Translations under genes and position numbers: made by a program
In this document: piece by piece, positions 5,842-20,152 of the stretch
Layout of the letters: the number at the start of each line of letters is the position of its first letter
How positions within the stretch are numbered: the stretch's first letter is position 1
Notes under the pieces: model-generated
Seen by the model: only the letters and a program-made list of their open reading frames with translations
Told to the model about the DNA's origin: nothing
The model's database searches: none
Assembly (NCBI RefSeq): GCF_000020385.1
Contig: NC_010814.1
Coordinates: 900,001 to 932,000, forward strand
Length of the DNA: 32,000 nt
DNA from: Trichlorobacter lovleyi SZ
GTDB lineage: Bacteria; Desulfobacterota; Desulfuromonadia; Geobacterales; Pseudopelobacteraceae
Direction: 5' to 3'

Positions 5842-5895
5842 AGAAGGTCTGCCCGAGAGATTATTTGCCGGTGTGAAGTCTTGCGCAGCAGGCCT

Positions 5896-7083
5896 TCAGG
5901 CCTGTGCCACCGTCAGTTTCCGTACCGGTTTGTTCAGGATGAAACCGGCCACGGAACAGAGTCCGATCAGGCCGATGGCGATAAATACCCCTTGCAGTCC
6001 TGCCGAACTCTGCAGCAGTGACCCCAGCAGCGGTCCCGCCACAAATCCCAGGTTTAAGAAGGCATGGAAGGTGCCGATCGAGGTTCCCATTCCCAGCCGC
6101 TGTCCCTCCTCAGCCAGCAAGGCGCTGGTGGCCGGCTGCGAGAGGGCGCTGAATGCGCCGATCCCCAGCGTCACACCGAGCATCTGCATGAAGTCGGCTG
6201 CAACGGGCAGCAGCATGTAAAGTAATGGCACCACCGTGCCGCCGCAGATCACCAGCATCCTGCGGGGCACCCGGTCGGCAATCCGGCCTGCCGGGCGCAG
6301 CAGCAACGTCATGATCAGGGTGGCCGAGGCCATGATGATTCCCACCTGTACCCCGCTCATCCCCAGTTTTGATGAAAGCAGGATCGGCAGAAACGTTCCG
6401 CAGGCCGTGATGCCGCAGGCCCTGCCGAAGATGAACAGCAGCAGCCCCTGCAGCGTGCCGCCCTGACGGCAGATGTTCCTGATGCCAGGTTGAGCGGAGA
6501 CTTCCTGCGCTATGCGGGGCGGTTGCAGCTGTCGCGGGATCGCAGCAAGGGCCAGCCCCAATGCGGCCATGCTGCAGATAATCAGGACGCCGAACAGGCC
6601 GTGAAAGCCTGCCTGGTCCATGATGATCCCGCCGATCAGCGGGCCGCTGCTGAGCGCGGCGTAGAAGGAGATATCAAAGCTGCCCATCGCCTTGCCCCAC
6701 TGCCTGCTGCTGGCATGATCGGCAATCAGTGTCTGCACCACCGGCCGGAACATGGCGCAACCGGCCCCTTGCAGCAGGCGCAGAGAGACCACCACCACCA
6801 GGTTTTCGGTTACCAGGTAACTGCAGGAGACCAGCAGGTAGACCAGCAGGCTGGTGATAACCAGCTGCCGCCGCCCAAAGCGGTCTGCCAGCGATCCCAT
6901 GATCGGGCTGAAGATGATCTTTGACAGCGCATAGCCGCCAACCGCCACCCCCAGCAGCAGCCCTCGGGCTCCGATGCTCTGGCAGTAGAGCGGAAAAAAG
7001 GCGTCGCTGACACCGAACCCCAGCGAGATCAGGAAATTGATCAGAAACAACACCCTGAACAGATTCCGGTGCTGCCCGTTCAT
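5896..7083 (-). CDS. MFS transporter
   Basis: ORF 5896..7110, 12-TM-like hydrophobic pattern, MFS loop motif GSLADRFGRR. The start is either ATG 7083, which forms an ATGA overlap with the upstream ORF stop, or ATG 7110. Confidence 0.8.
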   Translation of the reverse strand: MNGQHRNLFRVLFLINFLISLGFGVSDAFFPLYCQSIGARGLLLGVAVGGYALSKIIFSPIMGSLADRFGRRQLVITSLLVYLLVSCSYLVTENLVVVVSLRLLQGAGCAMFRPVVQTLIADHASSRQWGKAMGSFDISFYAALSSGPLIGGIIMDQAGFHGLFGVLIICSMAALGLALAAIPRQLQPPRIAQEVSAQPGIRNICRQGGTLQGLLLFIFGRACGITACGTFLPILLSSKLGMSGVQVGIIMASATLIMTLLLRPAGRIADRVPRRMLVICGGTVVPLLYMLLPVAADFMQMLGVTLGIGAFSALSQPATSALLAEEGQRLGMGTSIGTFHAFLNLGFVAGPLLGSLLQSSAGLQGVFIAIGLIGLCSVAGFILNKPVRKLTVAQA

Positions 7084-7523
7084 CTGTACAGCTCCTGGTA
7101 CTGCTGGCATTGATACGGCTGAACGCCGGAGATCAGGTACTGCTCAAGCATCTGGTCGTGCTTGTCGATATGCAGGCTGAGCAGCTTCCTGAGGGTCTGC
7201 AGGTCGTCGTCGATACAGAGCGCACGGGCTGCCTTGCAGCGGATACCGGCAATGGTGGTACAGATCCGGAAGTGATCAAGCTTGTGATCTTCATAGGCCA
7301 GATAGTCGATCGTAAACATATGGACGTTTTCAGACGCGGTCTGGCCCAGGACATTACCAAGCAGATCTTCGATCTGTTGTTCCAGTTCTGCAGACGGTAC
7401 CTGATCGGCAGTCGCGATAATCGCGTCAAGCACTGAAATTAACCTGGCCTGCCGGCTGTCATACGGCATGAGATGCTGTGTTGCAACATAACCGAAGGTA
7501 TTGAGTGGGCTGTAAGAAGACAT
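7080..7523 (-). CDS. Hypothetical 147-aa protein (weak hemerythrin-like His pattern)
   Basis: The ORF lies between ribBA (18-nt gap, GAGGAG SD) and the MFS gene (ATGA overlap). HKLDHF and LHIDKHDQMLEQYL loosely resemble the HxxxH and C-terminal HIxxxD..YL hemerythrin motifs. This was not verified. Confidence 0.55.
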   Translation of the reverse strand: MSSYSPLNTFGYVATQHLMPYDSRQARLISVLDAIIATADQVPSAELEQQIEDLLGNVLGQTASENVHMFTIDYLAYEDHKLDHFRICTTIAGIRCKAARALCIDDDLQTLRKLLSLHIDKHDQMLEQYLISGVQPYQCQQYQELYR

Positions 7524-7541
7524 GATCTGTTCTCCTCTTGC

Positions 7542-8741
7542 TCAGGCAGCCAGCAGGTGCCCGAGCTTGTCGCGCTTGGTCTGCAGGTAGCGCATGTTGG
7601 TGCTTAACGCCTTCATCTCGATCGGTACCCGCTCAACAATATTCAGGCCATACCCCTCCAGTCCGATCATCTTCTTGGGGTTGTTGGTCATCAGGCGGAT
7701 CTTTCTGGCTCCCAGCGCCCTGAGCATCTGGGCGCCAATGCCGTAATCCCGCAGATCGGCCTTGAATCCCAGCGCCTCGTTGGCCTCAACGGTATCGCAG
7801 CCCTGATCCTGCAGTTCATAGGCCTTGAGCTTGTTGATCAGGCCGATCCCCCTGCCTTCCTGCCGCATGTACAACAGGATGCCTGCGCCTTCCTGTTCAA
7901 TGCGGTCCATGGCCCGGCTGAGCTGTCCGCCGCAGTCACAGCGGATGCTGCCGAATACGTCACTGGTCAGACACTCCGAATGCACCCTGACCAGCACCGG
8001 CTCGTCCGGCCTGATCTCTCCCTTGACCAGGGCGATATGCTCCAGGCCGTCAATATCATTCTCAAAGGCAACCACGCGGAATTTGCCGGCCCAGGTGGGC
8101 AGCTTTGCCTCCGCCACCGGTCGCACCAGTGATTCATGCTTCAGCCGGTAGGCCACCAGATCGGCCACCGAGCAGATCCGGATGCCGTGCCGCAGGGCAA
8201 ACTCCCTCAACTGCGGCATGCGGGCCATGCTGCCGTCCTCGTTCATGATCTCGCAGATTACCCCGGCCGGTTTCAGCCCGGCCAGACGGGCCAGATCCAC
8301 CGAACCTTCAGTCTGGCCGGTGCGTACCAGCACCCCGCCGGCCCGTGCACGCAGCGGAAAGATATGGCCGGGGCGGGAGAGATCCTCCGGCCCGGTATTG
8401 TCGGCAATCGCGGTCAGGATGGTCTGGGCCCGGTCTGCTGCCGAGATGCCGGTGGTCACTCCATGGCGGGCCTCAATGGAAACCGTAAAGGCGGTCTGGA
8501 ATGGTGAGTTGTTCTCTGAAACCATGGGCGGCAGCTCAAGCTGGTCACAGCGCTCTTCGGTCAGGGTCAGGCAGATCAGGCCGCGGCCATACTTGGCCAT
8601 GAAATTGATCGCCTCCGGGGTGACATGCTCGGCTGCCATGGTCAGATCGCCTTCGTTTTCCCGATCTTCATCGTCAACCAGAATAACCATCCTGCCGTTG
8701 CGGATATCCCTGATCGCCTGTTCTATGGAGGATCGTGCCAT
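7542..8741 (-). CDS. ribBA: Bifunctional 3,4-dihydroxy-2-butanone-4-phosphate synthase / GTP cyclohydrolase II
   Basis: ORF 7542..8912. The real start is most likely ATG 8741 ([10 protein letters not shown]..., AAGGAG SD upstream). DHBP synthase motifs [12 protein letters not shown] and [13 protein letters not shown] Zn motif [16 protein letters not shown]. Confidence 0.9.
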
Positions 8742-8787
8742 CGCTCTGTACTCCTTTGCCTGTGACTGAAGAGAACTGGTGTCTGCT

Positions 8788-8816
8788 GAAAAATTGGGGG
8801 AGATCGCTCTCCCCCC
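8788..8816 (-). terminator. Intrinsic-terminator-like hairpin inside the ribBA 5-prime leader (attenuator candidate)
   Basis: Minus-strand RNA reads GGGGGAGA-GCGA-UCUCCCCC (8 bp, GNRA loop) followed by AAUUUUUC. It sits about 50 nt upstream of the ribBA ATG. Confidence 0.6.
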
Positions 8817-8885
8817 ATTGCACCACCTAAGGAGGATGCTCACCTGACGTAAGCGTCCGGTCTTAGTCTTGTTATGATACTGTGT

Positions 8886-8901
8886 TGCACTGTCTGTGCC
8901 A
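8886..8901 (-). promoter_or_regulatory. Sigma-54 (-24/-12) promoter-like site upstream of ribBA
   Basis: Minus strand reads TGGCACAGACAGTGCA, against the consensus TGGCAC-N5-TTGCA, with exact GG-N10-GC spacing. It lies about 145 nt upstream of the ATG. Confidence 0.45.
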
Positions 8902-9040: not shown

Positions 9041-10663
9041 CTATGGCAGTCTGAATTGCCTTACCAATGACTTCAGGTTCTCGGCATGATCAGTTAGCAA
9101 ATGAGCCGAATCCTTTGTGGTGCGTACATTCTGCATGCGGTCCTGTGAGCTCATGCTGATCCTTTGAATGTTGTTTGTAATTTCCTGAGCGGTTGCGGTC
9201 TGTTCAGTAGCTGCAGTTGCAATCTGGTTTATCTGTGTTGTTACAGAGTTTATCTCGTCCAATATGGTGTCAAGCGCTCGCCTTGATTTGTTGACTCCTT
9301 CTGTCCCACGCTCAACTTCTGTGGATCCATCTTTCATAGAGTTAACAGCCGTGCGTGTTTCTTGCTGAATTGCCTTAATCATCTCTCCGATTTCTCGCGT
9401 CGCTGTGGTGGTGCGTTCAGCAAGTGCCCGTACTTCATCAGCAACAACAGCAAATCCTCGTCCTTGCTCGCCGGCCCGTGCAGCTTCTATAGCAGCATTA
9501 AGTGCCAACAAGTTGGTCTGATCTGCAATATCTTCAATGGTTCCCACTATTGTTCCGATTTGATCCGACCTTGCCCCCAGTTGTTCGACTGTGGTTGAAG
9601 CCATGTGTACGCGCTCGACAATACGAGCCATAATGTCGATGTTTGTCTTGATAACGGTAACACCCTCTTTCGCAGAATTTGTTGCTTGGTGTGCATTGTC
9701 TGCAGCCATTAGGCAGCTCGCAGATATCTCTGATGAAGTTGCGGCCATTTCAGTGCTTGCAGATGCCAAGATATTTAATTGGCAAGCGATCTCCTCATTG
9801 TCTGCTAATATTTTGCCTGAAGTGTCTGCTAGCTGTCCTGCGCATACACTAAGCCTTGCCGAAGTGCTAACTAGCTGTGATACTATATTTTTCAAATTTT
9901 CAACCATTTTGCCTAATGCCATCATAAACAGACCAACTTCATCAGTTGCACGCCTATTAATAGTAATGGTTAAGTCTCCAGTGGCAATATTGTCTGCTGC
10001 CTGCATACAGGATCTAAGCGGTCTGATAATGTTTATAACAACAAGAAAAACAACCATGCATCCCATTAATATTGATACGACACCAACACCAATGATAAGT
10101 AAGCTTGAAAATTTATATATTGAAATTGCATTTTTTGCTGTTTCATTAAATCTGTTTGATAGAAACACTTCCATTGCTTTCACGCGAAGTAAGTATTCTT
10201 TTTCGGCGGGCTCAATCTTTGAAAAAAGTATGCTTTTTGCTTCATGCTTGTCGTTGCTCAATGCATATTCAAGACATTTTTTGTGTAGTAGCTCTATTTT
10301 AAGGCCATGATTTGCCATTTCTTTAAGTATTGTTTTGCCATTTGCCGATGATTCGGCTTTTTCTAAAGCCTTGGCTGCGCTACTTATTTCTTGGCTAATG
10401 CCAGAAAATTTATCGGCCTCGCGCTTCATTATATTGATATCATCGGTAATTATGATATTTCTTAATCCTTGCGTTATGTCTTTTATGTTATTATTTATCG
10501 TGTATATAGAACGTATTTTAGGTGCTTCGTCATAAGCAATAGTGTTAATGTTTTCAGATAGTTTGTGTAGCTGGAATAAAGATATAATAAGTATTGAAAT
10601 AATTGCGGAGAATATTATTGTAAAACCTATCAATAATTTATTTTTAATATTTATTTTAAGCAT
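9041..10663 (-). CDS. Methyl-accepting chemotaxis protein (4-helix-bundle-type periplasmic sensor, HAMP, MA domain)
   Basis: ORF 9041..10744; likely start is ATG 10663 ([14 protein letters not shown]...). Two TM segments, HAMP ([19 protein letters not shown]) and a conserved signalling hairpin ([38 protein letters not shown]). The DNA is very AT-rich. Confidence 0.9.
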
Positions 10664-10692
10664 ATTAGTATTAGCCTGTGTTTGTGATAGAC

Positions 10693-10733
10693 ATTCAGTG
10701 CCTGCACACATGTTCCGTATGCAGGCACTGAAT
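10693..10733 (-). other. Perfect 14-bp stem hairpin between the porin-like gene and the chemoreceptor gene
   Basis: ATTCAGTGCCTGCA-N13-TGCAGGCACTGAAT. No U-tract follows, so this is more likely an intercistronic stabiliser or processing structure than a terminator. Confidence 0.5.
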
Positions 10734-10740
10734 ATGGAAA

Positions 10741-11670
10741 TCAAAATGAGTAATTAAACTTTAACCAGAGTTTGGAACCTTCAGTACGGTTGCGTGCCTC
10801 GAATTCTTTCTGGAACTTTAAGTCGAAGCTCATGTTTTTGTACTGATACTCAATCTGGGGACCGGCTGCAAAGACACGGCCCTGGGCATATAGAGGGCCC
10901 ATATAGCCACTGTCTACCTTGTCTTTGGTTGTTTGTTGATAGATATAGCCTCCAACACCTATCTGGAAATCTGTATTAAACAGCGTCACTCTCTGGCTTA
11001 AGCCATAATCAACATGAAACTCCTGCCCGGACAGATAACCGGTATCCGTGTTTTTGGTGTTAAAATCGTACATGAATTTTCCAAACGCTTGAAAACCTTC
11101 ATCCCCGGTATAGGCGGTAATAAAGTTGGGCTGAATATCCCAATAATTCCTTCCGATGTTGGCTATGCGCGTCTTGTCATAGGTGCCGGTAGGAGTGGTA
11201 ATGTCTACCCCGGTAATCAGATGCCAGTTTTTTGTGTGCCAACCGAGCATAACCGGCGCAATGGTTATGTCGCCAAGCCCTGTTCTGCTGTCACTGCCTG
11301 CAGGTGTTGCCGTATTTACATAGACATCTACGATAGGTACCAGAATGTGCGATGAGACCTTGCTGCCCAGAATTTCCAGGTCCTTGCTTGTATGCATAAC
11401 CCTGAAAATGTTTGCTGTTGCCCGTGTCTTAAAGCCGGGGGCTGTCTCTTTACCGCTGTTATCAAGTGTCCTGCCGGCTTCGTAATAATTGGTGTAGTTG
11501 ACCAGGTGCAATCCCGGCGGGAATGCATCAAGAAAACCTTCAGACCCATGACCATAGGAACTTCCGCCATTTTCGGTTGCACGCGCTGACTGTGCCAGCA
11601 TCGAACTTGCGATAATAATAGCTGCAGCAGTAAAGCGAGTTGCCTTCAGTCTGTCTTTATAGATATTCAT
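10741..11670 (-). CDS. Outer-membrane beta-barrel channel of the MetA-pathway-of-phenol-degradation-like family
   Basis: ORF 10741..11772; likely start is ATG 11670 ([31 protein letters not shown], a signal peptide). Alternating beta-strand pattern, aromatic girdle residues and a C-terminal ...LKFNYSF. Confidence 0.7.
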
Positions 11671-11749
11671 AAGAGATCCTTTTGTGGCTGCTTGTGAAAA
11701 TGCCATGAATGTGAGCTTACGTAATCGTATGCTTTCTCCGCTATTCAGT

Positions 11750-11776
11750 CCTGGTGCCCTGTTGCAGGGCACCAGG
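11750..11776 (-). other. Perfect 12-bp stem hairpin downstream of the flavoprotein gene
   Basis: CCTGGTGCCCTG-TTG-CAGGGCACCAGG, 24 nt after the stop at 11800. No U-tract follows. Confidence 0.5.
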
Positions 11777-11799
11777 AGGCAGTGCTAAACCCTCTGCTG

Positions 11800-12715
11800 C
11801 TATTTGTATGACTCCAGGAAATGAAGTGCTGCAATTCTACCGCTGTTGACAGCAAATCCGAAGGTTGTTCCCGGAGAATCAAGGCCGTAAGAATCGCCAT
11901 ACAGTCCGCCTACGTCACTACCAACAACGTACACGCCGCCGATGGTCTTGCCGTCTGGTCTGATGGGTCTCATATCCAGGTCAGTACTGACGCCGCCCAC
12001 TGTTACAAGATATGAAAGCACAAGGCGCATGGCATAGAGTTTGCCGGTCAAAGGCGACATGAAATGCGGATCTTTGGCGAATTCTTCATCTTTATTGACG
12101 GAGGCAGCCTTGTTATAGGTTGCTATGGTCTTTTTCAACGTGTCAGCAGGTACCTTGATTTTGTCAGCCAGTTCTTCGATGCTTTCTGCTGCATACACAT
12201 TACGATCACCTGCTGCTATATACTTGTCGATGGCGCCATTCAGTTTCTCCAGCTTAGTGCCAATTGGAACAATGACCCCCATTCCGGCATCGATGCCGGA
12301 ATGTACATAATGTTTGCGCAGGTTTTCATCGAAGATGACCCAGGCAAAATGATCTGGTTGGCGTTCGACGGCATTTGCCTGAAGCACAAAATTGTTGGCA
12401 ATCAGTTCGTCGCAAAACCGCTCGCCATTCTTGTTTACCATGATGTTATTAGGCTGTTGACCTAACGCATCGAACTCAAGATCAACAAGGTTGGGTGCCC
12501 CCATCTTGGCCTTCCGTTTATCATACACAGCAGAATTTTCGAGAGTGCCTAGCCCTTCAGTTTTTGCTCCAAGCGCTTGAAGCTGAGTTAGTCCAAAACC
12601 GACTTTGCCGAAGTTGGCTACAGAGCCGGCGTAGGCATTGCCAACATATTTTTTGACAAGTTCCGGGTTGTCGGCAAATCCGCCAGTTGCAACAATAACG
12701 GACTTGGCCTTAATG
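11800..12715 (-). pseudogene. C-terminal fragment of a periplasmic FAD-dependent oxidoreductase (flavocytochrome-c/KstD-like), disrupted by IS21-family insertion
   Basis: The frame is open from 12709 through ORF 11800..12528. It begins ...AKSVIVATGGFADNPELVKKY (FAD-binding-2 family VxATGGF motif) and ends ...GGVYVVGSDVGGLYGDSYGLDSPGTTFGFAVNSGRIAA. Confidence 0.85.
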
Positions 12716-12773
12716 TGTCAATCGGCATTGAAATTTGACCCACCATCGGCGTCCAAAATTGACCCACCTCAGC
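12716..12773. repeat. IS21-family terminal inverted repeat, istB-proximal end
   Basis: TGTCAATCGGCAT..TTTGACCCACC..GGCGTCCAAAATTGACCCACCTCAGC. It holds two copies of the TTGACCCAC transposase-site-like repeat. Confidence 0.8.
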
Positions 12774-12781
12774 GGTTGATT

Positions 12782-13546
12782 TTAGTCTGAGTTTCTGGTT
12801 TTGATTCTCCAGCTTTCATTTCCTGTTTCGACGATTTCGCAGTGATGGGTAACCCTGTCCAGAAGTGCCGTGGTCATTTTGCCATCACCGAACACCTGCG
12901 GCCATTCTCCAAAGGTCAGGTTAGTGGTAATGATAAGCGATGTTCTCTCGTACAGCTTTGATATAAGGTGAAACAGCAGCTGTCCTCCAGCCTTTGAGAA
13001 CGGCAGATAGCCCAGTTCGTCCAGCACAACCAGATCAAGCCTGCAGAGTGCCTCTGCAAGCTTTCCTCCGCGTCCGCTTAGCTTTTCCTGTTCTAGTTGG
13101 TTGACCAGATCCAGCAGGTTGAAGTATCGGCCACGCTTACCGTTTCTGATCACCTGCCGTGCAATGGCAATGGCCAGATGGGTCTTGCCGGTACCGGTTC
13201 CACCTACCAGAATGATATTACTCTTTTCAGTAAGAAAGCCTCCCTCATACAGCATTCTGACCTGTGTCTCGTTGATCGGTGTATCCGTAAACTCAAAGTG
13301 ATCCAGGTCCTTCTCTACTGGAAACCTTGCCTGACTCAGGCGGTAGCGGATACTTCTGATTCTCCGTTCAGCCAGCTCTGCATTAAGCAGCTCAAACAGG
13401 ATCTTCTCCGGTGTGGCCCGTTGTTTGATGCCTGTGGCGATCAGCTCGTCACAGGCAGTCTTCATGCCATGCAGCCCAAGGGTCTCCATGGCCTTTTGCA
13501 GTTTCTCACGCAGTAGCACAGGCACCTCCGGCAAGCAGCAGGTCAT
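12782..13546 (-). CDS. istB: IS21-family helper ATPase IstB
   Basis: Walker [10 protein letters not shown], Walker [11 protein letters not shown]-terminal LKxxGLHGM motif. The start is uncertain: ATG 13546, or GTG 13519 behind a GGAGG. It overlaps the end of istA. Confidence 0.9.
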
Positions 13547-15020
13547 ACCGCCTGCAGTCAGCTACAGGCGGTATGATCAAAACCGGCAGTTTTGCTGCAG
13601 GATCTGCCGTTGGTGTCGGTTCTTCATCGTTTCGGGACAACAGATTAAGCACGACATCCCGACTGATGGTATTGGCTGCCAATGCATCAGTGCATGCCTG
13701 TGTTACTGCTTCAATGCCATAGTAGGAGACAACCGCCAGTATCCCGACAAACTGCCGGTCACCATCACGGTGCTTGGCAAGGGCACTACGGATTTGCTCA
13801 ATAGATTCCGGCAAATTCCATTCCTTAAACGGTGCACCGTTTCTGAGTGCTCCCGGCTTCTTCTTCAGTGCCTCCAGATAGTGCCAGGGATCATAGAAGA
13901 CCTGATCACGACCAAAGTGCCGTTTGTGGAATCCTACGGTTCTGCCGCTCTGGACAAAGGTCAGACGATCAGCATAGGCCCGTACCGTGACCGGGTTGCC
14001 AACAGCAGAGACATGGACGCTGTAACGGTTGCGGTCAAATGAGACCAGGGAGGTAGAAGATACCTTGGCATCGCTTTCCAGATAACCGTCAAACGGAACC
14101 GTTACCGTGAGAAGCTGCCGGCGTTCCTCCTTAAACAGGTCATTGATCGTCAGGAGTGGGTTGTCAGGATGTTTCTGGGTTGCTGCGTAGTCCAGACATT
14201 GTTCCTGCAGCCACTGGTTTAGCTCAGAAAGGTTGGTAAATGTCCGCCGTTTGGCGAAGAAACGCTTGCGCACAAGGCCTACCTGATTCTCTACCTGCCC
14301 CTTCTCCCAGCCTGCAGCAGGAGTGCAGGCTATCGGTTCAAACAGGTAGTGGGAGGCCAGACTCAAAAACCGACGATTGAATACACGATCCTTGCCCATC
14401 AGGACTTTGGTTACTACGGTTTTTAGGTTGTCGTAGATACCACGCCGACAGGCACCACCAAAGAAGCTGAATGCCTTGATATGAGCATCCAGAACCATCT
14501 CCAGGCTCTCACGTGTGTAGGCCACGCAAAATGGCATCCGACTGTTACAGAGGCGAAACTGAGCAATCTTGACCTTTACGATGATCCCACCCAACTCAAT
14601 CTGCTCATAGCTCCAGTCAAACTGAAATGCCTCACCAGGATCAAAGGATAGCGGAATAAAGGCTGCGGCTACGCCGCCGCCGGTCTCTTTGCGCTGCTGC
14701 TGGATGTAACGACGGACGCTGTCATAGCCACCTTCAAATCCTTCCCGCTGTAGCGTCTCAAACAATAACTGGGCACTACGACGATGGCGGACTGGCTTTA
14801 CGGCATCTTCAGACAACAGTCCTTTGAGACGTTCTTCAAATGCAGCAAGCTTTGGCCTGGGCTGTTCGGTGCGGGTATAAACCTGATCGGTTACGTCACT
14901 TCTGATGATTTTCTTGACGGTGTTCTTAGACAGATGAAACTCACGGGCTATCTGCCTGATTGGTTTCTTGTCCCGGTGGTAAGCCTGGCGGATTTTACGG
15001 ATGGATTCCACTAGCAGCAT
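13506..15020 (-). CDS. istA: IS21-family transposase IstA
   Basis: 504-aa ORF with an N-terminal HTH ([17 protein letters not shown]) and a DDE-type integrase core (FQFDWSY...). Typical IS21 two-gene layout. Confidence 0.9.
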
Positions 15021-15071
15021 CTCCTTTCAAAGCTCCTCTCTCTGGATGATGCCAAAGAGAATGGAGGAGGT

Positions 15072-15139
15072 GCTGAGGTGGGTCAATTTTGGACGCCGAT
15101 TACACCCGAAAGTGGGTCAATATTGCATGCCGATTCACA
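15072..15139. repeat. IS21-family terminal inverted repeat, istA-proximal end
   Basis: The reverse complement reads TGTGAATCGGCAT..ATTGACCCAC..GGCGTCCAAAATTGACCCACCTCAGC, matching 12716..12773. Confidence 0.8.
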
Positions 15140-15780
15140 TTAATGCGGATTTCGCCTTTCTTGCCTTTTGCAGCTACGCCCACCACGTCATTATTTTCAT
15201 TTGCAATGAGGCGTGTAGCAGGTGTTTCCATCATTATCTTCACATTCGGGCTTTGCTTTGCCTTGCCGAACAAAACCTTGATCAAGCCCTTCCCATGTTC
15301 ATGAACAATGTGCCAGGTTCGAACACCATCAAATGTTGTTTGAGATACCTCTTCAAATGGCACTCCCATGTCCTGGAGCCAGTTAATAGTTGCACCGGAC
15401 ATATTGATAAATTTACGCATAAGCCGAGCATTGCCCTTCCAGTGCGTGTAATTCATCTCGCGTTTAAAAACCATGTCTTTGGTTAGCATGGGGGGGCCCA
15501 AATAACGATCACGTTGCATGCGTGATTCAACACCGAGCACGCCTTCCGCAACGTTGGAAGTGCCGCCAGGGAAAGGGTTTTGCTCAAGGACAATTATTTT
15601 CTTAACTCCACCTTGTAGGAGCGTCATTGTTGCACTTAAGCCTGAAGATCCAGCCCCAATAACAACGACATCGGCCTCGTCAGTAAACTCAGGACTTGCC
15701 GCATGCGCCGGTGTTATGGTTAGGCATGCTAACAATACCATCCAGTACTTTACAAACCTGCTTATTAGTGTTTTTCGCAT
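15140..15780 (-). pseudogene. N-terminal fragment of the same periplasmic FAD-dependent oxidoreductase
   Basis: ATG 15780 opens MRKTLISRFVKYWMVLLACLTITPAHA (signal peptide), followed by the dinucleotide fold DVVVIGAGSSGLSA. In ORF 15100..15843 the native sequence ends at ...KGKKGEIRI, then the frame reads into the IS. Confidence 0.85.
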
Positions 15781-15802
15781 TCCTTGCTCACGCTCCTTTG
15801 TA

Positions 15803-16213
15803 TTAATGTCCTGCTGGCTTTGAACCACCTGTTTTCTTTTCAAAGATCATTTCTGAATGACAATTCTGGCAGTAGTTGATTTGCTCTTTGTGGCCGACAT
15901 GGCATTTGGTGCAATCTATGTCTAAAAGATGGTTACTGTGTGGGTTTGGTTGTAAATTAATAGTGCGTTTTGCTACTGCTGCGCTGTTTTCGTGACAGCT
16001 AAGACACTTGTCTCCTTCAACAGCCTGTTTCGGGTTTGTGTCATGACATGCTTCGCACGTTAACCCATTGTTTTTGTGGCGATCAGCCAGAACCGGTTTG
16101 TCCTGAGCAAATACATAACCTGAGGTAATGACCAAAAGCATGGCTGCTATAAAAATATTGAACTTGTACTTGAAACCTGTTTTTGTTTTGCAAATACAGT
16201 AAGATGCTGTCAT
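15803..16213 (-). CDS. Small periplasmic tetrahaem cytochrome c
   Basis: 136 aa with a hydrophobic N-terminal signal and four CxxCH motifs (CEACH, CLSCH, CTKCH, CQNCH). GAGGTG SD upstream. The stop lies 22 nt before the flavoprotein start. Confidence 0.9.
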   Translation of the reverse strand: MTASYCICKTKTGFKYKFNIFIAAMLLVITSGYVFAQDKPVLADRHKNNGLTCEACHDTNPKQAVEGDKCLSCHENSAAVAKRTINLQPNPHSNHLLDIDCTKCHVGHKEQINYCQNCHSEMIFEKKTGGSKPAGH

Positions 16214-16439: not shown

Positions 16440-16455
16440 TGCTCAGACTGTGCCA
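16440..16455 (-). promoter_or_regulatory. Sigma-54 promoter-like site upstream of the cytochrome/flavoprotein operon
   Basis: Minus strand reads TGGCACAGTCTGAGCA. GG-N10-GC spacing is exact, but the -12 box is weak (GAGCA versus TTGCA). It lies about 225 nt upstream of the cytochrome start. Confidence 0.35.
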
Positions 16456-16649
16456 TCAAGAGGCATGGCTGCAATGTGTTGAATATATTTATTTAATTCT
16501 GGTGTTTGGTGGTTAGTGCAGAGGCGGGCGGCATATTTTTTCTAGAATGTGTAATCTTGTTTTGCATTTTTTGGAAAAATGGTTATCGTGGGCCAACTCA
16601 AACATGGTGTGAAGCAGGTTCTTCCATGTACGGTTTCCGGGGGGTAAGC

Positions 16650-18257
16650 ATGAAGGCAGAAGAACTAGATCTGAGGCGCATCCTTTCCTTCAGACCCAAG
16701 GGGGGGACAATACAGTTTATGGGGCACAGGGCCATGATTGTCGATGCACTGGCAATGGGGCTTTTGCGTAAAGAATTGATCGAAAATCTTGGCAATTTTG
16801 CTGCCAGAACAATTCTTACCCGTTTTGGCTACGCACACGGCTGGAGCACTGCTGACAACCTCTGTATCGAATATCCAGATCTTAAAGATGACCCTAAAAC
16901 GGGGCCAACGTTACATATGCTGCAGGGGATTTTGAATGTGGCAACAAATGATGTTTTTCATGAGCCGTCTTTTCGAATATCTATTCGTAGTCAAGAATCC
17001 TATGAAGCCGAGCAACATCTCTTGCATGTCGGTATCCCTTCAGATCCGGTTTGCTGGACGCTGACGGGATATATCAGTGGTTACTGCTCACGCATGCAGG
17101 GTGAAGAAGTTTACTGTATTGAACATCAGTGCTGTGCCATGGGAGACGCGATATGTCGCTATGAAGTACGCACTCGAGAGGATTGGGATGAGGAGATTGA
17201 GCCGCATTTACCATTTTTTCGTGCAGATACTATTGATTCGGTGCTCCATGAGGTGACTGCAAAACTTAAAAAAACCGAACGTGACATCAAAGTGCGAAGA
17301 TCTCTTATGGATGGAGATCTTGGCTGCTGCGGACTTGCAGCAAAAAGCAAGACCATGCGCAAGACCATAGATCTTGCCAGGAGGATTGCGAAGGTAGAAT
17401 CTTCAGTGGTGATTACCGGTGAAAGCGGCGTAGGCAAGGAGCGGATAGCGCGGATCATCCATAGTGAATCTTCACGCGCCTTACGGCCGTTTGTTGCCAT
17501 CAACTGCAGTGCCGTCACGGAAACCTTGCTGGAAAGTGAATTTTTCGGGCATGCCCGTGGGGCTTTTACCGGTGCCAACAGAGACCGGATCGGTCTGTTT
17601 GAGGCCGCGAATGGCGGCACCTTGTTTTTAGACGAAGTGGGCGAGATCTCGCCAGGCATGCAGGCCAAGCTGCTGCGTGTCTTGCAAGAAAAGGAGATCA
17701 GGCGGGTTGGTGAAAACAGCTCACGCCCTGTGGATGTCCGGATTATCTCCGCCACTAACCGGGATCTCGGTAATGAGGTCTCGGCGGGCCGTTTTCGAGA
17801 AGATCTGTATTACCGGTTGTGTATCTTTGAGCTGGTTGTGCCGGCCCTACGTGAACGCCAAGAGGATATTCTGTTGTTGGCACGTTGTTTTCTGGATAAA
17901 TCGACACAGAAAATCGGTAAGGAAATCATTGGCTTTCAGCCTGAGGTAACGGATCGCCTGATACAGTATGAATGGCCTGGCAATGTGCGGCAACTAGAGA
18001 ATACCATTGAGCATGCCGTGGTGCTGTGCCAGGGAAAACGGATTGGGCTTGATGATCTGCCGAAGGCGGTGCGTTCGGCTCAGGGCGGGGGGAGTGTCGC
18101 AAATGCCATCAGAAAGATTGATGATCTCGAGCGGGAGCAGATCCTTGCAGCAATCAAACTGCTTGACGGCGATAAGACTGAGGCTGCCAAACAGTTGGGA
18201 ATAAGCCTCTCCTCCCTGTATCAGAAGCTTAAACGATACCAGACGTTGCCGGTTTAA
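16650..18257 (+). CDS. Sigma-54-dependent transcriptional activator with XylR-N/V4R sensor domain (XylR/DmpR/MopR-like)
   Basis: ORF 16506..18257. The likely start, ATG 16650 (MKAEELDLRRILSF...), was chosen by alignment with the paralog at 20153. V4R Cys motif CCAMGDAIC, AAA+ Walker A GESGVGKE, GAFTGA, ESEFFGH and a C-terminal Fis-type HTH. Confidence 0.9.
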   Translation: MKAEELDLRRILSFRPKGGTIQFMGHRAMIVDALAMGLLRKELIENLGNFAARTILTRFGYAHGWSTADNLCIEYPDLKDDPKTGPTLHMLQGILNVATNDVFHEPSFRISIRSQESYEAEQHLLHVGIPSDPVCWTLTGYISGYCSRMQGEEVYCIEHQCCAMGDAICRYEVRTREDWDEEIEPHLPFFRADTIDSVLHEVTAKLKKTERDIKVRRSLMDGDLGCCGLAAKSKTMRKTIDLARRIAKVESSVVITGESGVGKERIARIIHSESSRALRPFVAINCSAVTETLLESEFFGHARGAFTGANRDRIGLFEAANGGTLFLDEVGEISPGMQAKLLRVLQEKEIRRVGENSSRPVDVRIISATNRDLGNEVSAGRFREDLYYRLCIFELVVPALRERQEDILLLARCFLDKSTQKIGKEIIGFQPEVTDRLIQYEWPGNVRQLENTIEHAVVLCQGKRIGLDDLPKAVRSAQGGGSVANAIRKIDDLEREQILAAIKLLDGDKTEAAKQLGISLSSLYQKLKRYQTLPV

Positions 18258-18319: not shown

Positions 18320-19942
18320 TCAGGCTGCCAGCTTGAATCTGGCCACCAGCTGCTGCAGTTCCCCGGCCAGTCCGGACAGGTGCTGCGCGGCTGTAGCCGT
18401 GTCTTTGGCATGCTGGGTGGCATGTCCGACGGTTGCGGTGATCTGCTGCATGTTGTTGCTGATCTCATGGGTGGTGGCGGTCTGTTCCTCTGCAGCAGTG
18501 GCGATCTGGCCGATCTGGCCGGTCACTGCGGTGATCTGGGACAGGATATCCTGCAGGGCTGTCCCGGATTTTTCAGCCTCCAGGGCGCCGCGTTCAACCT
18601 GGCGTACTCCGTCGTCCATGGCACTGACTGCCGTCCTGGTCTCTTCCTGGATATTCTTGATCATCTGGCCGATCTCACGGGTGGCGGCGGTGGTCCGCTC
18701 TGCCAGGACCCGCACCTCATCGGCCACCACGGCAAAGCCCCGTCCCATCTCGCCGGCACGGGCCGCCTCAATGGCTGCATTCAGGGCCAGCAGGTTGGTC
18801 TGGTCGGCAATGTCTTCAATGGTGCTGACGATCTCGCCGATCTGGTCAGAACGCTTGCCCAGGCTGTCAACGGTTCCTGCCGCGGATTTGACCCGTTCCG
18901 TGATGGTGGCCATGGCGTTGATGGTGCTCTGCACCACTGTTTCGCCGGTCCTGGCGGCGCTGCTGGCCGTATCGGCGCTTTGGGCGGTCATCTGGCAGTT
19001 CTGGGCGATATCCCCGGCGGTTGCCGCCATCTCGTTGCCGGCCGTGGCCACGTTAAGGGCCTGGCTTGCCACCGTATCGGTGCCGGCCAGCATATCGGTC
19101 GAGGTATGCTGGAGCCGGTTGGCTGCATCGGCAACATTGGTCGCTGCGGTCTTCAGCATGCCGATGGTTTCTCGCATATACTGGGCCATGTTGCCCATGG
19201 CCCGCATCAGGACGGCGGTCTCGTCCTTGCCCTGGGCATCGATATGCACCGTCAGGTCACCGGTCGCAATGGCATCGGCAACCTGCATGCAGGAACGGAT
19301 CGGCCTGATGATGGTGCTGGTCACCAGGAACGAGATGATCAGGGCGGCGCCGATTGCGATGGTGCCGCAGACAATCATGAAGATCAGTGCGGTCCTGCTG
19401 GCTGACTGGGCCTTTTGTGCCGCAAGTTCTGCCTGGTCATTGTAGTATTCCAGCAACTTCTTCAGGGCCGGGTCGGTCACTTCCCGGGTAAGTTTGGTGC
19501 CATCCTGCAGGGCGCTTAGATAACGTGGCCGATCATTGGTCATGGCCGCTTCCACCAGGTTCTTGATCATCGTGCGGCCGGATACGGTTGCCCCCTTGTA
19601 ATCCTCAACCAGTTTTTTCCCTTCAGCCAGCAGGGTGCCGGCTTCAAGTTTTTTCAGGGCGTCCAGATAGATATCGCGATCTTTGGCGTTCAGCTGCAGC
19701 AGGGCCTGTTTTTCCTCCGTGTTTTCCAGGTGTCCCATATGTTTGACCCGGTCGTTGATGGAGTAAATGCTGGCCTGAACCTTTGATGCCTGGTGGCTGA
19801 GCTGGTAAACCCGTTGCACCTCCCCCAGTTTGTGCTGCATGTCGCGTAGTGCCTGAATACCGATGACCAGCGTGCCCAGCAGCAGTAGCGCGATCAGGCC
19901 GAAACCTACCATCAGTTTTGCGGTAATCCCCAGATTCTTCAT
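18320..19942 (-). CDS. Methyl-accepting chemotaxis protein (GC-rich paralog of 9041..10663)
   Basis: ORF 18320..19981; likely start is ATG 19942 ([14 protein letters not shown]) behind AAGGAGGAGG. The architecture matches the other chemoreceptor. The [23 protein letters not shown] is nearly identical to that of the AT-rich copy, while the periplasmic domain has diverged. Confidence 0.9.
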
Positions 19943-20041
19943 CTCCCCCCTCCTCCTTATCCTCCTTGGTAATTTCTGCACGGCTGTTTCCCCGCTGTGG
20001 GACTAGGCACATGGTTCTGCCGAGCTGATTGAGAGATCGGA

Positions 20042-20057: not shown

Positions 20058-20152
20058 TGCCGTAAGTTGCTGTTTAAGCGTTGTTTTTCATATTTGTAGT
20101 TGACTGGGGTTATCGTAATGATAGGCTGTTTACTGAATTGAAAGGGGGGGGT

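Follow-up and report, generated by a model that had tools for sequence, protein, structure and literature searches.

The window, by which we mean the whole stretch of 32,000 nucleotides of Trichlorobacter lovleyi SZ DNA analysed here, contains a minus-strand cluster in which genes for a tetrahaem cytochrome c and a flavoprotein are accompanied by those for an outer-membrane channel and an MCP. The question raised by this locus is which compound the cytochrome and the flavoprotein would act on, and in which direction. The genes had been described before in a sequence-only reading, and all of them were recovered on the minus strand, with the activator gene transcribed divergently (Table 1).

Layout of the locus

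Table 1. Features of the locus, with positions in the window.
Feature	Position	Strand	Evidence
Tetrahaem cytochrome c (136 aa precursor, Sec signal)	15803..16213	-	PF14537 E=1.4e-19
Flavoprotein gene, 5' part	15140..15780	-	PF00890 E=1.9e-19; codons 1-213 and two bases of codon 214
IS21-family insertion sequence, 2,424 bp	12716..15139	-	TIRs, CATTAA duplication, istA/istB
Flavoprotein gene, 3' part	11800..12715	-	PF00890 E=7.1e-14
COG4313 / Phenol_MetA_deg outer-membrane channel, 309 aa, signal peptide	10741..11670	-	PF13557 E=3.8e-69
MCP, 540 aa	9041..10663	-	Pfam: 4HB_MCP_1, HAMP, MCPsignal
EBP1, sigma-54 enhancer-binding activator	16650..18257	+	XylR_N, V4R, Sigma54_activat, HTH_8
Candidate -24/-12 (sigma-54) promoter for the cytochrome operon, TGGCACAGTCTGAGCA	16440..16455	-	Consensus match
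A/T-rich palindrome CATTTTTCCAAAAAATG, tentative candidate activator-binding site	16565..16581	-	L100 analogue
Predicted hybrid promoter of sigma-70 type where IS and target meet	12692..12721	-	10/12 consensus match
Adjoining operon: sigma-54-like promoter, structured leader, RibBA, hemerythrin-like protein, MFS	5896..8901	-	Pfam, NCBIfam

The domain matches of the locus genes are far above chance level. Likely true starts lie downstream of the mechanical ORF starts for the flavoprotein, the porin, the MCP and the activator EBP1, the last having a mechanical ORF from 16506. The flavoprotein starts at ATG 15780, preceded by the RBS AAGGAG, and its gene is split by an IS21-family element. The 5' part holds a Sec-type signal peptide (MRKTLISRFVKYWMVLLACLTITPAHA, followed by A) and the FAD dinucleotide-binding motif; the 3' part holds the capping domain together with the C-terminal motif GGLYGDSYGLDSPG of the active site. 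Removal of the IS and one copy of the duplication gives an intact in-frame ORF of 516 aa, exactly the length stated in the sequence-only reading, and an uninterrupted orthologue (91% identical) has the target site once. The IS-free 516-aa model has a pLDDT of 86 and a pTM of 0.83.

The operon is low in GC, was acquired horizontally and encodes a periplasmic flavocytochrome of two subunits. The composition of the locus is mosaic: compared with locus L001 of a near-identical relative the flavoprotein has a dS of 0.89 versus 0.08 for the porin, which is 99% identical to its L001 orthologue, and GC3 across the locus spans 28 to 78%. The cluster contains no gene for an inner-membrane quinol dehydrogenase, and no PAD, tannase or UbiD genes occur within the 32-kb window.

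The cytochrome-flavoprotein pair

The cytochrome has four CXXCH motifs with a haem spacing that is identical in all 12 orthologues. It aligns haem-for-haem with the N-terminal domains of Ifc3 (1qo8, 2.7e-10) and Fcc (1d4d, 3.9e-10). Since its counterpart is the haem domain of flavocytochrome c3 in Shewanella, the pair is taken as a split flavocytochrome, as had been proposed earlier, of which the cytochrome is the electron-input subunit. In Fcc3/FccA, Ifc3 and UrdA a tetrahaem c3-type module likewise feeds an FAD domain of the same fold (TM 0.62-0.76) for respiratory C=C reduction, and these proteins are exported by the Sec route, implying periplasmic flavin loading. The window pair differs in that the haem and FAD domains are encoded by separate genes. 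This arrangement, with both genes in one operon, is found in the periplasmic methacrylate reductase Mrd/Mcc of Geobacter sulfurreducens AM-1 (PMC4427408) and the acrylate reductase ArdAB of Shewanella woodyi (bioRxiv 10.1101/2024.02.11.579808), in each of which the two genes likewise moved as a unit by horizontal transfer. In AM-1 a 'GTP cyclohydrolase' gene just downstream of Mrd/Mcc recalls the RibBA of the window (PMC4427408). In contrast to the window, the flavoprotein gene precedes the cytochrome gene in both systems, Mcc is longer than the window cytochrome (231 versus 136 aa), the substrates are small 2-enoates, with C4-carboxylate-binding residues retained in ArdA, and the Mrd and ArdA flavin subunits carry Tat signals. 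Sec-type signal peptides were found throughout the flavoprotein family of the window; with a Sec rather than a Tat signal, FAD insertion must be periplasmic.

The flavoprotein is a Sec-exported FAD protein of a VprA-like branch of the fumarate-reductase/KstD superfamily. Its best PDB sequence matches are Fcc (4.5e-32) and UrdA (1e-27), with a TIGR01813 score of 198 that is below the cut-off of 285. Foldseek TM values are 0.76 for UrdA, 0.62-0.69 for Fcc3 and, level with these reductases, 0.70-0.74 for KstD and cyclohexanone dehydrogenase, the HMM scores for the latter two being far below cut-off (125 vs 789). The curated family that fits best is that of VprA, the vinylphenol reductase of Lactiplantibacillus plantarum (NF053717; PMC10295242), but at 313 bits the flavoprotein stays below the 600-bit cut-off, and it is 31% identical over 480 aa to true VprA, which itself scores 784 bits. 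NF053717 was the top family for every clade examined (290-416 bits). The two proteins belong to the same FAD_binding_2 superfamily branch and have in common the motif GD(S/T)YG..PG and a core of E79, W156, H157, R311, N326, Y412, K426, D486, Y488 and G494; both are without the fumarate-type Arg/His residues. VprA, for which a review cites EC 1.3.1.74 (PMC10295242), is cytoplasmic, lacks both a signal peptide and a cytochrome partner and is under LysR control, whereas the window protein is Sec-exported, has a tetrahaem cytochrome partner and is predicted to be under sigma-54/XylR-type control. The substrate-contact residues also differ.

The C-terminal motif GGLYGDSYGLDSPG, noted earlier, aligns with GGVHGANRLGGN of Shewanella flavocytochrome c. 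The protein has no fumarate or 2-enoate clamp: the substrate-binding and proton-delivery residues H365, R381, R402, H504 and R545 of Fcc3 are replaced by S273, Q298, N319, V449 and Y488, and none of the mapped substrate-contact positions has a positively charged residue. Fumarate, already doubted in the sequence-only reading, was rejected as substrate on the basis of these five substitutions. Y488 and G494 are invariant and align with Tyr487 and Gly491 of KstD1, the pair that hydrogen-bonds the conjugated keto oxygen; unlike the window protein, the dehydrogenases KstD and cyclohexanone dehydrogenase lack a cytochrome subunit and reside in the cytoplasm or at the membrane. At the Fcc3 substrate-contact positions the clade of the window has S/T273, Y276, D294, Q298, N319 and N320, and a clade linked to PAD genes has F, G/A, A/G, G/L and F, so the substrate of the window clade may differ from that of its sister. 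The PAD-linked clade is among the nearest sisters in an NJ tree without support values.

Gene neighbourhood and regulation

Among 13 lineages a cytochrome homologue adjoins the flavoprotein gene in all, a COG4313-family porin accompanies the pair in 9, an MFS exporter in 7 and an XylR-type activator in 5. The MCP does not belong to the core. It sits on a 1,681-bp lineage-specific indel (9052-10732) that is replaced in L001 by 145 bp with a strong hairpin and is missing also from FeAm09. The sensor half has a GC3 of 28% versus 74-78% in host genes, and a search of 5.8e9 proteins gave no homologue for it at E<=1e-5; overall the MCP is 41% identical to the resident MCP2. Unrelated MCPs adjoin the module in the sister lineage L099, an independent recurrence seen once. 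These comparisons mark the MCP as an insertion specific to its lineage, with an orphan sensor, and as an accessory outside the conserved module, a better description than the earlier 'dedicated' chemoreceptor. Nor is the quartet with an XylR-type regulator conserved as a package; regulators vary by lineage (XylR-type, PAS-kinase/LuxR or LysR). A PAS kinase/LuxR pair replaces the XylR-type activator in four lineages of the window clade.

Genes of phenolic metabolism occur beside related pairs. In the sister-clade loci L095 and L096 PAD (PF05870, 1e-75 and 3e-81) and tannase/feruloyl esterase (2e-122) genes are clustered with the pair, FeAm09 has a tannase gene and L089 a UbiD/VdcC-like decarboxylase. 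Among ~100 loci fetched, PAD was seen only beside this flavoprotein family. The sequence-only reading had missed the recurring MFS exporter and RibBA genes. In the window these form an adjoining minus-strand operon of host-like composition, encoding RibBA (8741..7542), a 147-aa hemerythrin-like protein (7523..7080) and an exporter-type MFS protein (7110..5896), which is syntenic in L001 and FeAm09. Its sigma-54-like promoter (8901-8886, TGGCACAGACAGTGCA) is kept in L001, and its leader has a fold z of -2.6 and no Rfam match. MFS_3 and RibBA genes from unrelated lineages adjoin the pair in L085, L087 and L099.

EBP1 is a divergently transcribed aromatic-sensor sigma-54 activator of the XylR/DmpR/MopR type, with XylR_N (2.8e-29), V4R (6e-10), Sigma54_activat (2.4e-69) and HTH_8 domains. 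The sensor domain is homologous to those of MopR, PoxR and DmpR and matches MopR 5kbe at 5.6e-22. The Zn site (C..ExxC..C) and His106 are kept; Trp134 of MopR, a ligand of the phenol OH, is Ser in EBP1. An EBP1 orthologue (70% identical) adjoins a flavoprotein-cytochrome pair in L100. Every promoter and UAS named here is a candidate identified by consensus match only. The sigma-54 site TGGCACAGTCTGAGCA scores 13/15, with only ~8 sites of at least 13 in 64 kb on both strands, and in L100 a comparable site, TGGCACGAAGAACGCA, precedes the flavoprotein gene by ~90 nt. The short, A/T-rich palindrome CATTTTTCCAAAAAATG, ~110-125 nt upstream of the -24 element, is tentatively considered a candidate activator-binding site; in L100 a similar palindrome with the same TTTCCAAAA core lies ~100 nt upstream of the sigma-54-like site.

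Proposed reaction, alternatives and state in this genome

With slightly better than even confidence we read the locus as a two-part periplasmic flavocytochrome system that probably reduces a lignin-derived phenolic alkene. The gene context points to an alkene derived from hydroxycinnamates. The aromatic or hydrophobic unsaturated substrate favoured in the sequence-only reading is still the best interpretation, in view of the VprA-like clade, the KstD-type Tyr/Gly pair, the MopR-type sensor with its intact Zn site, the COG4313 channel, and the PAD, tannase and UbiD genes beside pairs of relatives. The porin matches PDB 4RL8 (Pput2725, E=3.8e-6), and its family comprises channels suited to hydrophobic rather than anionic substrates (PMC4493636); by analogy, it is proposed to take up a hydrophobic substrate. 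A vinylphenol-type or related hydroxycinnamate- or lignin-derived alkene would enter through this channel, and an aromatic effector would bind EBP1 and switch on the sigma-54 promoter upstream of the cytochrome gene. Electrons would pass from the quinol pool and the periplasmic cytochrome network via the four haems to FAD, which would reduce the C=C bond. Tyr488 and the Gly494 backbone could polarise a conjugated phenolic or keto oxygen and activate the C=C bond as in KstD, in place of the Arg and His residues with which fumarate, urocanate and acrylate reductases clamp a carboxylate. Against this reading stand the VprA score at about half the equivalog cut-off and the low identity to true VprA, as do the clade-specific contact residues, the lack of PAD, tannase and UbiD genes in the window and of a quinol dehydrogenase gene in the cluster, the Ser in place of Trp134 and the PAS kinase/LuxR pair of four lineages; against the reductive direction, the relatives KstD, cyclohexanone dehydrogenase and TcuA are dehydrogenases.

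It is unlikely that the pair is a periplasmic hydroxycinnamate (2-enoate) reductase that converts p-coumarate, ferulate or caffeate to phenylpropionates, with vinylphenols playing no part. The model for this is the Arg-less, Tyr-containing clades of cinnamate reductases in gut bacteria. At least four separate origins of cinnamate reductases are shown by Little et al. (bioRxiv 10.1101/2022.12.26.521950). As described there, clades 2-4 of these Cir/Crd enzymes are secreted PF00890 respiratory reductases of phenylpropenoids that, as here, have the two active-site Arg replaced, a conserved Tyr and co-localised dedicated regulators; Sutterella homologues fall in the same VprA-like superclade as the window protein. 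The polar contact residues listed above could bind a carboxylate or catechol, the tannase/feruloyl esterase of FeAm09 would free hydroxycinnamates, and exporter/importer-type MFS genes are nearby. However, Cir/Crd belong to other clades and hosts, and the passages of the preprint that were consulted mention neither a c3-type tetrahaem partner nor a COG4313 porin or control of the sigma-54 XylR type (10.1101/2022.12.26.521950). Moreover, the top family is VprA and no enoate reductase, the mapped positions showed no positively charged residue, the channel family fits hydrophobic substrates better than anionic ones (PMC4493636), and the PAD adjacency implies that in the sister clade the decarboxylated product is the substrate.

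An oxidative role appears quite unlikely. The flavoprotein would then be a periplasmic KstD- or cyclohexanone-dehydrogenase-like desaturase of an alkyl-phenolic or cyclic ketone, passing electrons through the tetrahaem cytochrome and the periplasmic cytochrome pool to Fe(III) or another acceptor. The aligned catalytic Tyr/Gly pair and the equal TM values agree with this, as do the aldehyde dehydrogenase genes that adjoin the pair in L004, L096 and L100 and the Geobacteraceae-like hosts, in which periplasmic cytochromes normally move electrons outward. However, reduction is the reaction of the nearest curated family and of every characterised relative that is linked to a cytochrome c (Fcc3, UrdA, Mrd/Mcc, ArdAB), and what PAD yields beside the sister-clade pairs is an alkene rather than an alkane. 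The cytochrome has its homologue in the haem domain of Fcc3, which is of low potential, and with such haem potentials C-C desaturation (midpoint near 0 mV) would be thermodynamically uphill. Finally, the differing dS and GC3 values, the MCP indel with its orphan sensor, the IS and the varying regulators could indicate a generic redox pair set by coincidence among unrelated porin, MCP, activator and RibBA/MFS genes in a recombination-prone, IS-rich island, but this is very improbable since porin, MFS and XylR-type genes recur in varied orders from non-orthologous lineages, which inheritance or chance can hardly explain, the EBP1 orthologue of L100 again adjoins a pair, and among the ~100 loci PAD was confined to this family.

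The IS is oriented like the operon and carries terminal inverted repeats, a perfect 6-bp duplication CATTAA (15140-15145 and 12710-12715) and intact istA (15020..13506) and istB (13546..12782) genes, with Mu-transpos_C_2/rve domains in IstA and an IstB_IS21 match of E=3.4e-75. L001 has a single, uninterrupted target site, and a Trichlorobacter lovleyi plasmid matches the last 149 nt of the IS at 96.6% identity. From the perfect duplication and repeats, the intact istAB and the flavoprotein dN/dS of 0.058 against L001 the insertion is judged recent, and since it splits the flavoprotein gene the reductase is non-functional in this genome. The sequence-only reading had named an IS-free allele without stressing this. 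The hybrid promoter at the IS end (-35 TTGACA inside the element, -10 TATTGT in the flanking gene) was the top match in a 13-kb scan. This predicted promoter would read into the 3' gene fragment, the porin and the MCP, and it may sustain expression of the last two.

A split flavocytochrome c and its predicted active site

The sequence-only reading had described a minus-strand operon for a tetrahaem cytochrome c, a flavoprotein, a beta-barrel porin and a methyl-accepting chemotaxis protein (MCP), with the activator EBP1 divergently transcribed, and Pfam searches and gene coordinates showed this description to be correct in every particular (see table). The cytochrome gene precedes the flavoprotein gene in the same orientation with an intergenic gap of 22 nt. 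The cytochrome aligned haem for haem with the N-terminal tetrahaem domain of the Shewanella flavocytochromes Ifc3 and Fcc (2.7e-10), and the closest solved structures to the flavoprotein by sequence were Fcc (4.5e-32) and UrdA (1e-27), also from Shewanella. The haem-domain match and the adjacent, co-oriented genes bear out the split pair proposed earlier; by homology this pair of genes encodes a split flavocytochrome c3. A tetrahaem c3-type module coupled to an FAD domain is common to Fcc3/FccA and the window protein, but in the window the module is a separate gene. The porin has a signal peptide, a precursor length of 309 aa, a match to PDB entry 4RL8 (3.8e-6) and the mature length of 270-320 aa that characterizes COG4313 channels, a family with a role in the uptake of hydrophobic compounds (PMC4493636).

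Features of the cytochrome-flavoprotein locus and its surroundings in window coordinates
Feature	Position	Strand	Characteristics
Cytochrome c, 136 aa	16213..15803	minus	PF14537 E=1.4e-19; four CXXCH
FAD_binding_2 flavoprotein	ATG 15780	minus	RBS AAGGAG; Sec-type signal peptide ending at AHA, followed by A
IS21-family element, 2,424 bp	12716-15139		istA (DDE transposase), istB (AAA+ helper)
Sigma-70-like match at IS end	12692-12721	minus	-35 TTGACA, flank TATTGT
Phenol_MetA_deg/COG4313 beta-barrel porin	11670..10741	minus	PF13557 E=3.8e-69
MCP	10663..9041	minus	4HB_MCP_1, HAMP, MCPsignal
Stretch replacing 145 bp of L001	9052-10732		1,681 bp
EBP1 activator	16650 (probable start), end 18257	plus	XylR_N + V4R + sigma-54 AAA+ + HTH_8
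Sigma-54-like site, cytochrome gene	16455-16440		TGGCACAGTCTGAGCA
RibBA operon	5896-8901	minus	RibBA, hemerythrin-like protein, MFS
Sigma-54-like promoter, RibBA operon	8901-8886		TGGCACAGACAGTGCA
ribBA leader	8742-8895	minus	hairpin GGGGGGAGAGCGATCTCCCCC, then T-run
V_AS9 match	8541-8644	plus	62 bits, antisense within ribBA
Second MCP (MCP2)	18320-19981	minus	4HB type
EBP2 activator	20081-21784	plus	XylR_N/V4R, sigma-54 type
Sigma-54-like site, second MCP	20057		TGGCATGCCATCTGCA
Back-to-back sigma-54-like sites	24491; 24687	minus; plus	both contain TGGCACAG
moeA/moaA	23130-24350, 22163-23191	minus
Another MFS gene	24794-26011	plus
Rep_3-type replication initiator	26192-27001	plus	Rep3_N 3.5e-12, Rep3_C 5.3e-7

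When the active site of Fcc was mapped on the window protein through sequence alignment, every fumarate-binding or proton-relay residue was found to be replaced (H365 by S273, R381 by Q298, R402 by N319, H504 by V449 and R545 by Y488), in agreement with the earlier judgement that the substrate is probably not fumarate. The motif GGLYGDSYGLDSPG was confirmed and aligned to GGVHGANRLGGN of Shewanella flavocytochrome c. The score with the flavocytochrome c fumarate reductase model TIGR01813 was 198 bits, below the cut-off of 285 bits. Y488 and G494 are invariant across the family and aligned with Tyr487 and Gly491 of KstD1, the pair that polarizes the steroid C3 keto oxygen. The KstD model NF009478 did not reach its cut-off (125 vs 789 bits), and the sequence alignment to KstD covers the C-terminal third only, without the regions of the catalytic base Tyr318 and Tyr119. 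In Foldseek comparisons a model of the 516-aa protein (pLDDT 86, pTM 0.83) was about equally near to UrdA and Fcc3 (TM 0.62-0.76) and to KstD and cyclohexanone dehydrogenase (TM 0.70-0.74).

The best of 18,950 curated NCBIfam models was that of vinyl phenol reductase VprA (NF053717), which aligned over the full length with 313 bits against a cut-off of 600 bits. Relatives in every clade of the Sec-exported family scored 290-416 bits with this model, and a bona fide VprA encoded beside a LysR gene on an L. plantarum plasmid scored 784 bits. The window protein and this VprA are 31% identical over 480 aa (BLASTP, E=5e-62) and have the segment GD(S/T)YG..PG in common, and core catalytic columns are conserved between VprA and all clades. 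From the VprA match, the common segment and the KstD-type residue pair, the window protein would share the chemical theme of VprA and KstD, which is a C=C bond conjugated to a phenolic or keto oxygen.

An outright label as vinylphenol reductase (VprA equivalog) was rejected, as the HMM score is sub-threshold and the pocket residues differ from clade to clade. At the Fcc3 substrate-contact positions the window clade has S/T273, Y276, D294, Q298, N319 and N320, the clade linked to phenolic acid decarboxylase (PAD) genes has F, G/A, A/G, G/L and F, and VprA has F, Y, N, T and D. VprA is cytoplasmic and has no cytochrome partner, whereas the window protein has a Sec signal and a tetrahaem cytochrome gene; VprA converts 4-vinylphenol, vinylguaiacol or vinylcatechol to the ethyl derivatives, a reaction suggested for the window protein by gene context, namely the PAD and tannase genes beside sister-clade pairs. 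Flavin-reductase clades in which the two Arg are lost and a Tyr is conserved are independently reported by Little et al. (bioRxiv 10.1101/2022.12.26.521950).

Adjacent, co-oriented genes for a flavoprotein and a tetrahaem cytochrome c also encode the split reductases Mrd/Mcc and ArdAB. The flavin subunits Mrd and ArdA carry a Tat signal (PMC4427408; ArdAB preprint), whereas the window protein has no twin-arginine motif and every member of its close family has a Sec-type signal with an AXA site, not Tat. The system belongs to the periplasmic flavocytochrome c reductases, and its distinctive set consists of a Sec-exported flavin subunit, a VprA/KstD-type active site, a hydrophobic-compound channel and aromatic-type regulators. 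The literature searched, which covers part of the published work, yielded no account of a periplasmic reductase of the vinylphenol type that is linked to a cytochrome.

Gene neighbourhood, chemoreceptor and regulation

The neighbourhood was surveyed in 13 lineages of the flavoprotein family with 43-91% identity to the window protein. A tetrahaem cytochrome c with identical haem spacing was present in all 13 and a COG4313 porin in nine; seven lineages had an MFS transporter, five an XylR/V4R sigma-54 activator, four a PAS-HisKA_3 kinase with a LuxR regulator and two a LysR regulator. RibBA and aldehyde dehydrogenase genes occurred in three lineages each, PAD and tannase/feruloyl esterase genes in two each, and a UbiD/VdcC-like decarboxylase in one. 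An adjacent MCP was found in only two of the 13, so that of the quartet suggested earlier the cytochrome always accompanies the flavoprotein and the porin recurs with it, but the MCP is not a conserved member.

The order of the module genes varies among the lineages. The MFS genes form two unrelated groups, one represented by the window and the relative FeAm09, the other of the MFS_3 type in loci L085, L087 and L099, and the RibBA of L085 is only 28% identical to that of the window. The XylR-type activators likewise form two groups: those of L085, L087 and L089 are 55-64% identical to each other and 36-38% to EBP1, which is itself 70% identical to the activator of locus L100. The varied order and the unrelated MFS, RibBA and activator lineages suggest that the associations are functional rather than the result of joint inheritance alone.

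PAD genes were found only in L095 and L096 among ca. 100 fetched loci, and their identification is secure (PF05870, 1e-75 and 3e-81; structures of ferulic/p-coumaric acid decarboxylases, 1e-59 to 1e-93). The gene order in L095 is PAD, tannase, amylase, MFS, cytochrome and flavoprotein; in L096 the cytochrome-flavoprotein pair has a divergent LysR gene and is accompanied by PAD and a COG4313 porin. Vinylphenols, the substrates of VprA, are formed from hydroxycinnamates by PAD (PMC10295242). In a neighbour-joining tree, calculated without support values, the closest sisters of the window clade included the PAD-linked clade. Within the 32-kb window tblastn detected no PAD, tannase or UbiD genes. 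The PAD of L096 (5416-6033 of that locus, minus strand) has an export-signal-like N-terminal extension of ca. 43 residues, MSRATFLKGVAGAAVLGIASRNMAA, and may act in the periplasm. The pattern used in a reference-genome scan with the family alignment was only a generic FAD motif, and the matches listed included neither FeAm09 nor the source genome; the best of these was 42% identical and provides distant context only.

The chemoreceptor had been considered a dedicated part of the module, a view that was abandoned since the MCP gene is missing at the same position in L001, the locus of the closest relative, and in FeAm09. In L001 the porin stop codon is directly followed by a strong hairpin within 145 bp that are swapped in the window for a stretch comprising exactly the MCP gene. 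Because it lies on an indel absent from L001 and is missing from FeAm09, the MCP is an accessory insertion and not a conserved module member. Its sensor half had no homologue at E<=1e-5 among 5.8 billion proteins, and its signalling half resembles the resident second MCP (41% identity overall). The 77-nt spacer between porin and MCP contains an 11-bp hairpin with no T-run, and read-through from the porin into the MCP gene is therefore possible.

Locus L099 has three paralogous MCPs around the module, one of them directly downstream of the porin; the sensor of these MCPs is unrelated to that of the window MCP. Locus L014 has a 4HB MCP ca. 3 kb away from the module. The L099 genes led us to reject an MCP link unique to the window. 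Recurrent independent recruitment of MCPs to the module is plausible, with the qualification that the cases are few and MCPs are abundant in such genomes.

The sensor of EBP1 has homologues of solved structure in the phenol-sensor domains of MopR, PoxR and DmpR/CapR (5.6e-22), and all four domains of the protein (the XylR_N and V4R sensor, the sigma-54-interacting AAA+ domain and the Fis-type HTH) exceed the Pfam cut-offs. The Zn-binding Cys/Glu/Cys/Cys site and His106 are kept in EBP1, and Trp134 is changed to Ser (MopR numbering). His106 and Trp134 of MopR are the ligands of the phenol OH, and with Ser at the latter position the effector of EBP1 need not be a simple phenol.

The sigma-54-like site upstream of the cytochrome gene is one of ca. 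8 sites scoring at least 13 in 64 kb of both strands (weighted GG-N10-GC scan), and the strict TGGC-N8-TGC pattern had zero matches in the cytochrome-EBP1 intergenic region. Locus L100, which has an EBP1 orthologue, carries TGGCACGAAGAACGCA ca. 90 nt before the flavoprotein gene, and an A/T-rich palindrome whose core reads TTTCCAAAA occurs in both the window and L100 ca. 100-125 nt upstream of the -24 element. These sites and palindromes are consensus matches only and were retained as candidate elements. The cytochrome leader matched no Rfam family even at E<=1.

A second activator, EBP2, is 55% identical to EBP1 and divergent from the second MCP, with a high-scoring sigma-54-like site just upstream of the latter; the two look like a native aromatic-type activator/chemoreceptor pair of host GC content beside the island. 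Further downstream, two strong back-to-back sigma-54-like sites are flanked by moeA/moaA and another MFS gene.

Insertion and mosaicism of the locus

An IS21-family element splits the flavoprotein gene; its istA and istB are both intact, it ends in terminal inverted repeats, and the 6-bp target duplication CATTAA is perfect. Removal of the element and one copy of the duplication restored the 516-aa ORF, reproducing the earlier reconstruction, and P0001, an intact orthologue with 91% identity, has a single copy of the target site (...ATCCGTATTAAGGCC...). No further copies of this IS were found among the fetched loci; the IS21 genes near L087/88 were rejected as such because they belong to a different element. 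The -35 hexamer at the IS terminus and the flanking TATTGT gave the best sigma-70-like match in the region, a putative hybrid promoter that would be directed into the 3' fragment of the flavoprotein gene, the porin and the MCP.

GC3 is 74-78% in host-like window genes (RibBA, MFS, second MCP), 38-52% in the cytochrome, flavoprotein, porin and EBP1 genes and 28% in the sensor half of the MCP. Compared with L001, the porin and RibBA are 98-99% identical at the protein level (dS 0.08 and 0.17, respectively) and the flavoprotein 91% (dS 0.89), with nucleotide identities of 77-94% across 150-nt blocks of the flavoprotein gene. This divergence contrast along 10741-16213 points to allelic replacement or recombination inside the operon. 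A dN/dS of 0.058 indicates that the flavoprotein gene had been under strong purifying selection, which together with the perfect duplication and the intact transposase genes shows the insertion to be recent. The reductase is non-functional in the window genome, where the locus is an inactivated copy.

A metagenome scan for relatives recovered only a duplicate of L001 and L093, a contig of 1,139 bp. The first 250 nt of L093 are 98.8% identical to window positions 12657-12408 inside the flavoprotein gene and the remainder is unrelated GC-rich sequence; it is probably a chimeric assembly, or else another rearrangement of the gene. Between the MFS and DHH-CBS-polyA polymerase genes, L001 has a 799-aa PDZ/peptidase S41/caspase-like gene (6428-8875 of L001) that is absent from the window (5830-5892). 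The GC content drops locally at the Rep_3-type gene; no iteron array was detected by TRF, and comparison of the window with known plasmids gave no meaningful match. The gene may be what is left of an integrated plasmid; alternatively, the window may be part of an uncharacterized replicon.

Proposed mechanism, flavin supply and implications

The mechanism that we favour, with somewhat better than even confidence, is reduction of a phenolic alkene. A hydrophobic phenolic alkene would enter through the COG4313 channel, the periplasmic cytochrome network would deliver electrons to FAD by way of the four haems, and FAD would reduce a C=C bond activated through Tyr488 and Gly494. Aromatic-sensing EBP1 would induce the operon from a sigma-54 promoter. 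The catalytic direction (reduction) and an energy-conserving role are inferred by analogy with relatives.

Since signals throughout the family are of the Sec and not the Tat type, the flavoprotein must acquire its FAD in the periplasm; in Shewanella, the exporter Bfe is required for FAD in this compartment. The RibBA operon of the window is of host composition and encodes, besides RibBA, an exporter-type MFS protein and a hemerythrin-like protein of 147 aa (27 bits, below cut-off). It has its own sigma-54-like promoter, which L001 shares. Elsewhere, the flavocytochrome pair again has MFS and RibBA neighbours, of unrelated lineages, and a 'GTP cyclohydrolase' gene, of a type not stated, lies downstream of mcc (PMC4427408). 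This recurrence may have to do with supplying flavin to the Sec-exported flavoprotein, or with removing toxic phenolics by efflux. The ribBA leader is a structured 5' UTR with a terminator-like hairpin (z=-2.6); neither the FMN riboswitch nor any other Rfam family matched it even at E<=1, and it may be an attenuator. The only Rfam match at gathering level in the window, V_AS9, was rejected as an sRNA because its antisense position inside the ribBA coding sequence makes it a probable coding-conservation artefact.

A wider reading, which we consider unlikely, joins these elements into a complete respiratory system of environmental anaerobes for vinylphenol-type lignin products, with its own flavin-supply line and taxis. 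RibBA would provide precursor synthesis and the MFS protein would export flavin to load the Sec-exported apo-flavoprotein in the periplasm, a role equivalent to that of the MATE-family exporter Bfe for FccA/UrdA in Shewanella. MCPs would have been added in some lineages for taxis towards the electron acceptor. If true, this would be the first MFS-type exporter assigned a periplasmic flavin-export role. The Sec signal and the recurrent RibBA/MFS neighbours in any case raise the question of the FAD source of periplasmic flavoproteins outside Shewanella.

Since the enzyme gene is broken, phenolic-alkene reduction is less important for the window genome itself. If the proposal is true, vinylphenol-type or related phenolic alkenes could serve Geobacteraceae-like and other anaerobes for respiration. 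Feruloyl esterases and phenolic acid decarboxylases liberate these alkenes from plant cell walls, and the carbon cycle of sediments and soils would gain a new class of organic electron acceptor. With a Tyr/Gly pair replacing the Arg/His clamp, the enzyme would then illustrate how a fumarate-reductase scaffold is retuned from activating carboxylates to activating phenol or keto groups. The recently recognized diversity of respiratory 'flavin reductases' would reach beyond the gut and include a periplasmic, cytochrome-linked route to ethylphenols; Sutterella homologues share the superclade of the window protein, and 4-ethylphenol is a metabolite active in the host.
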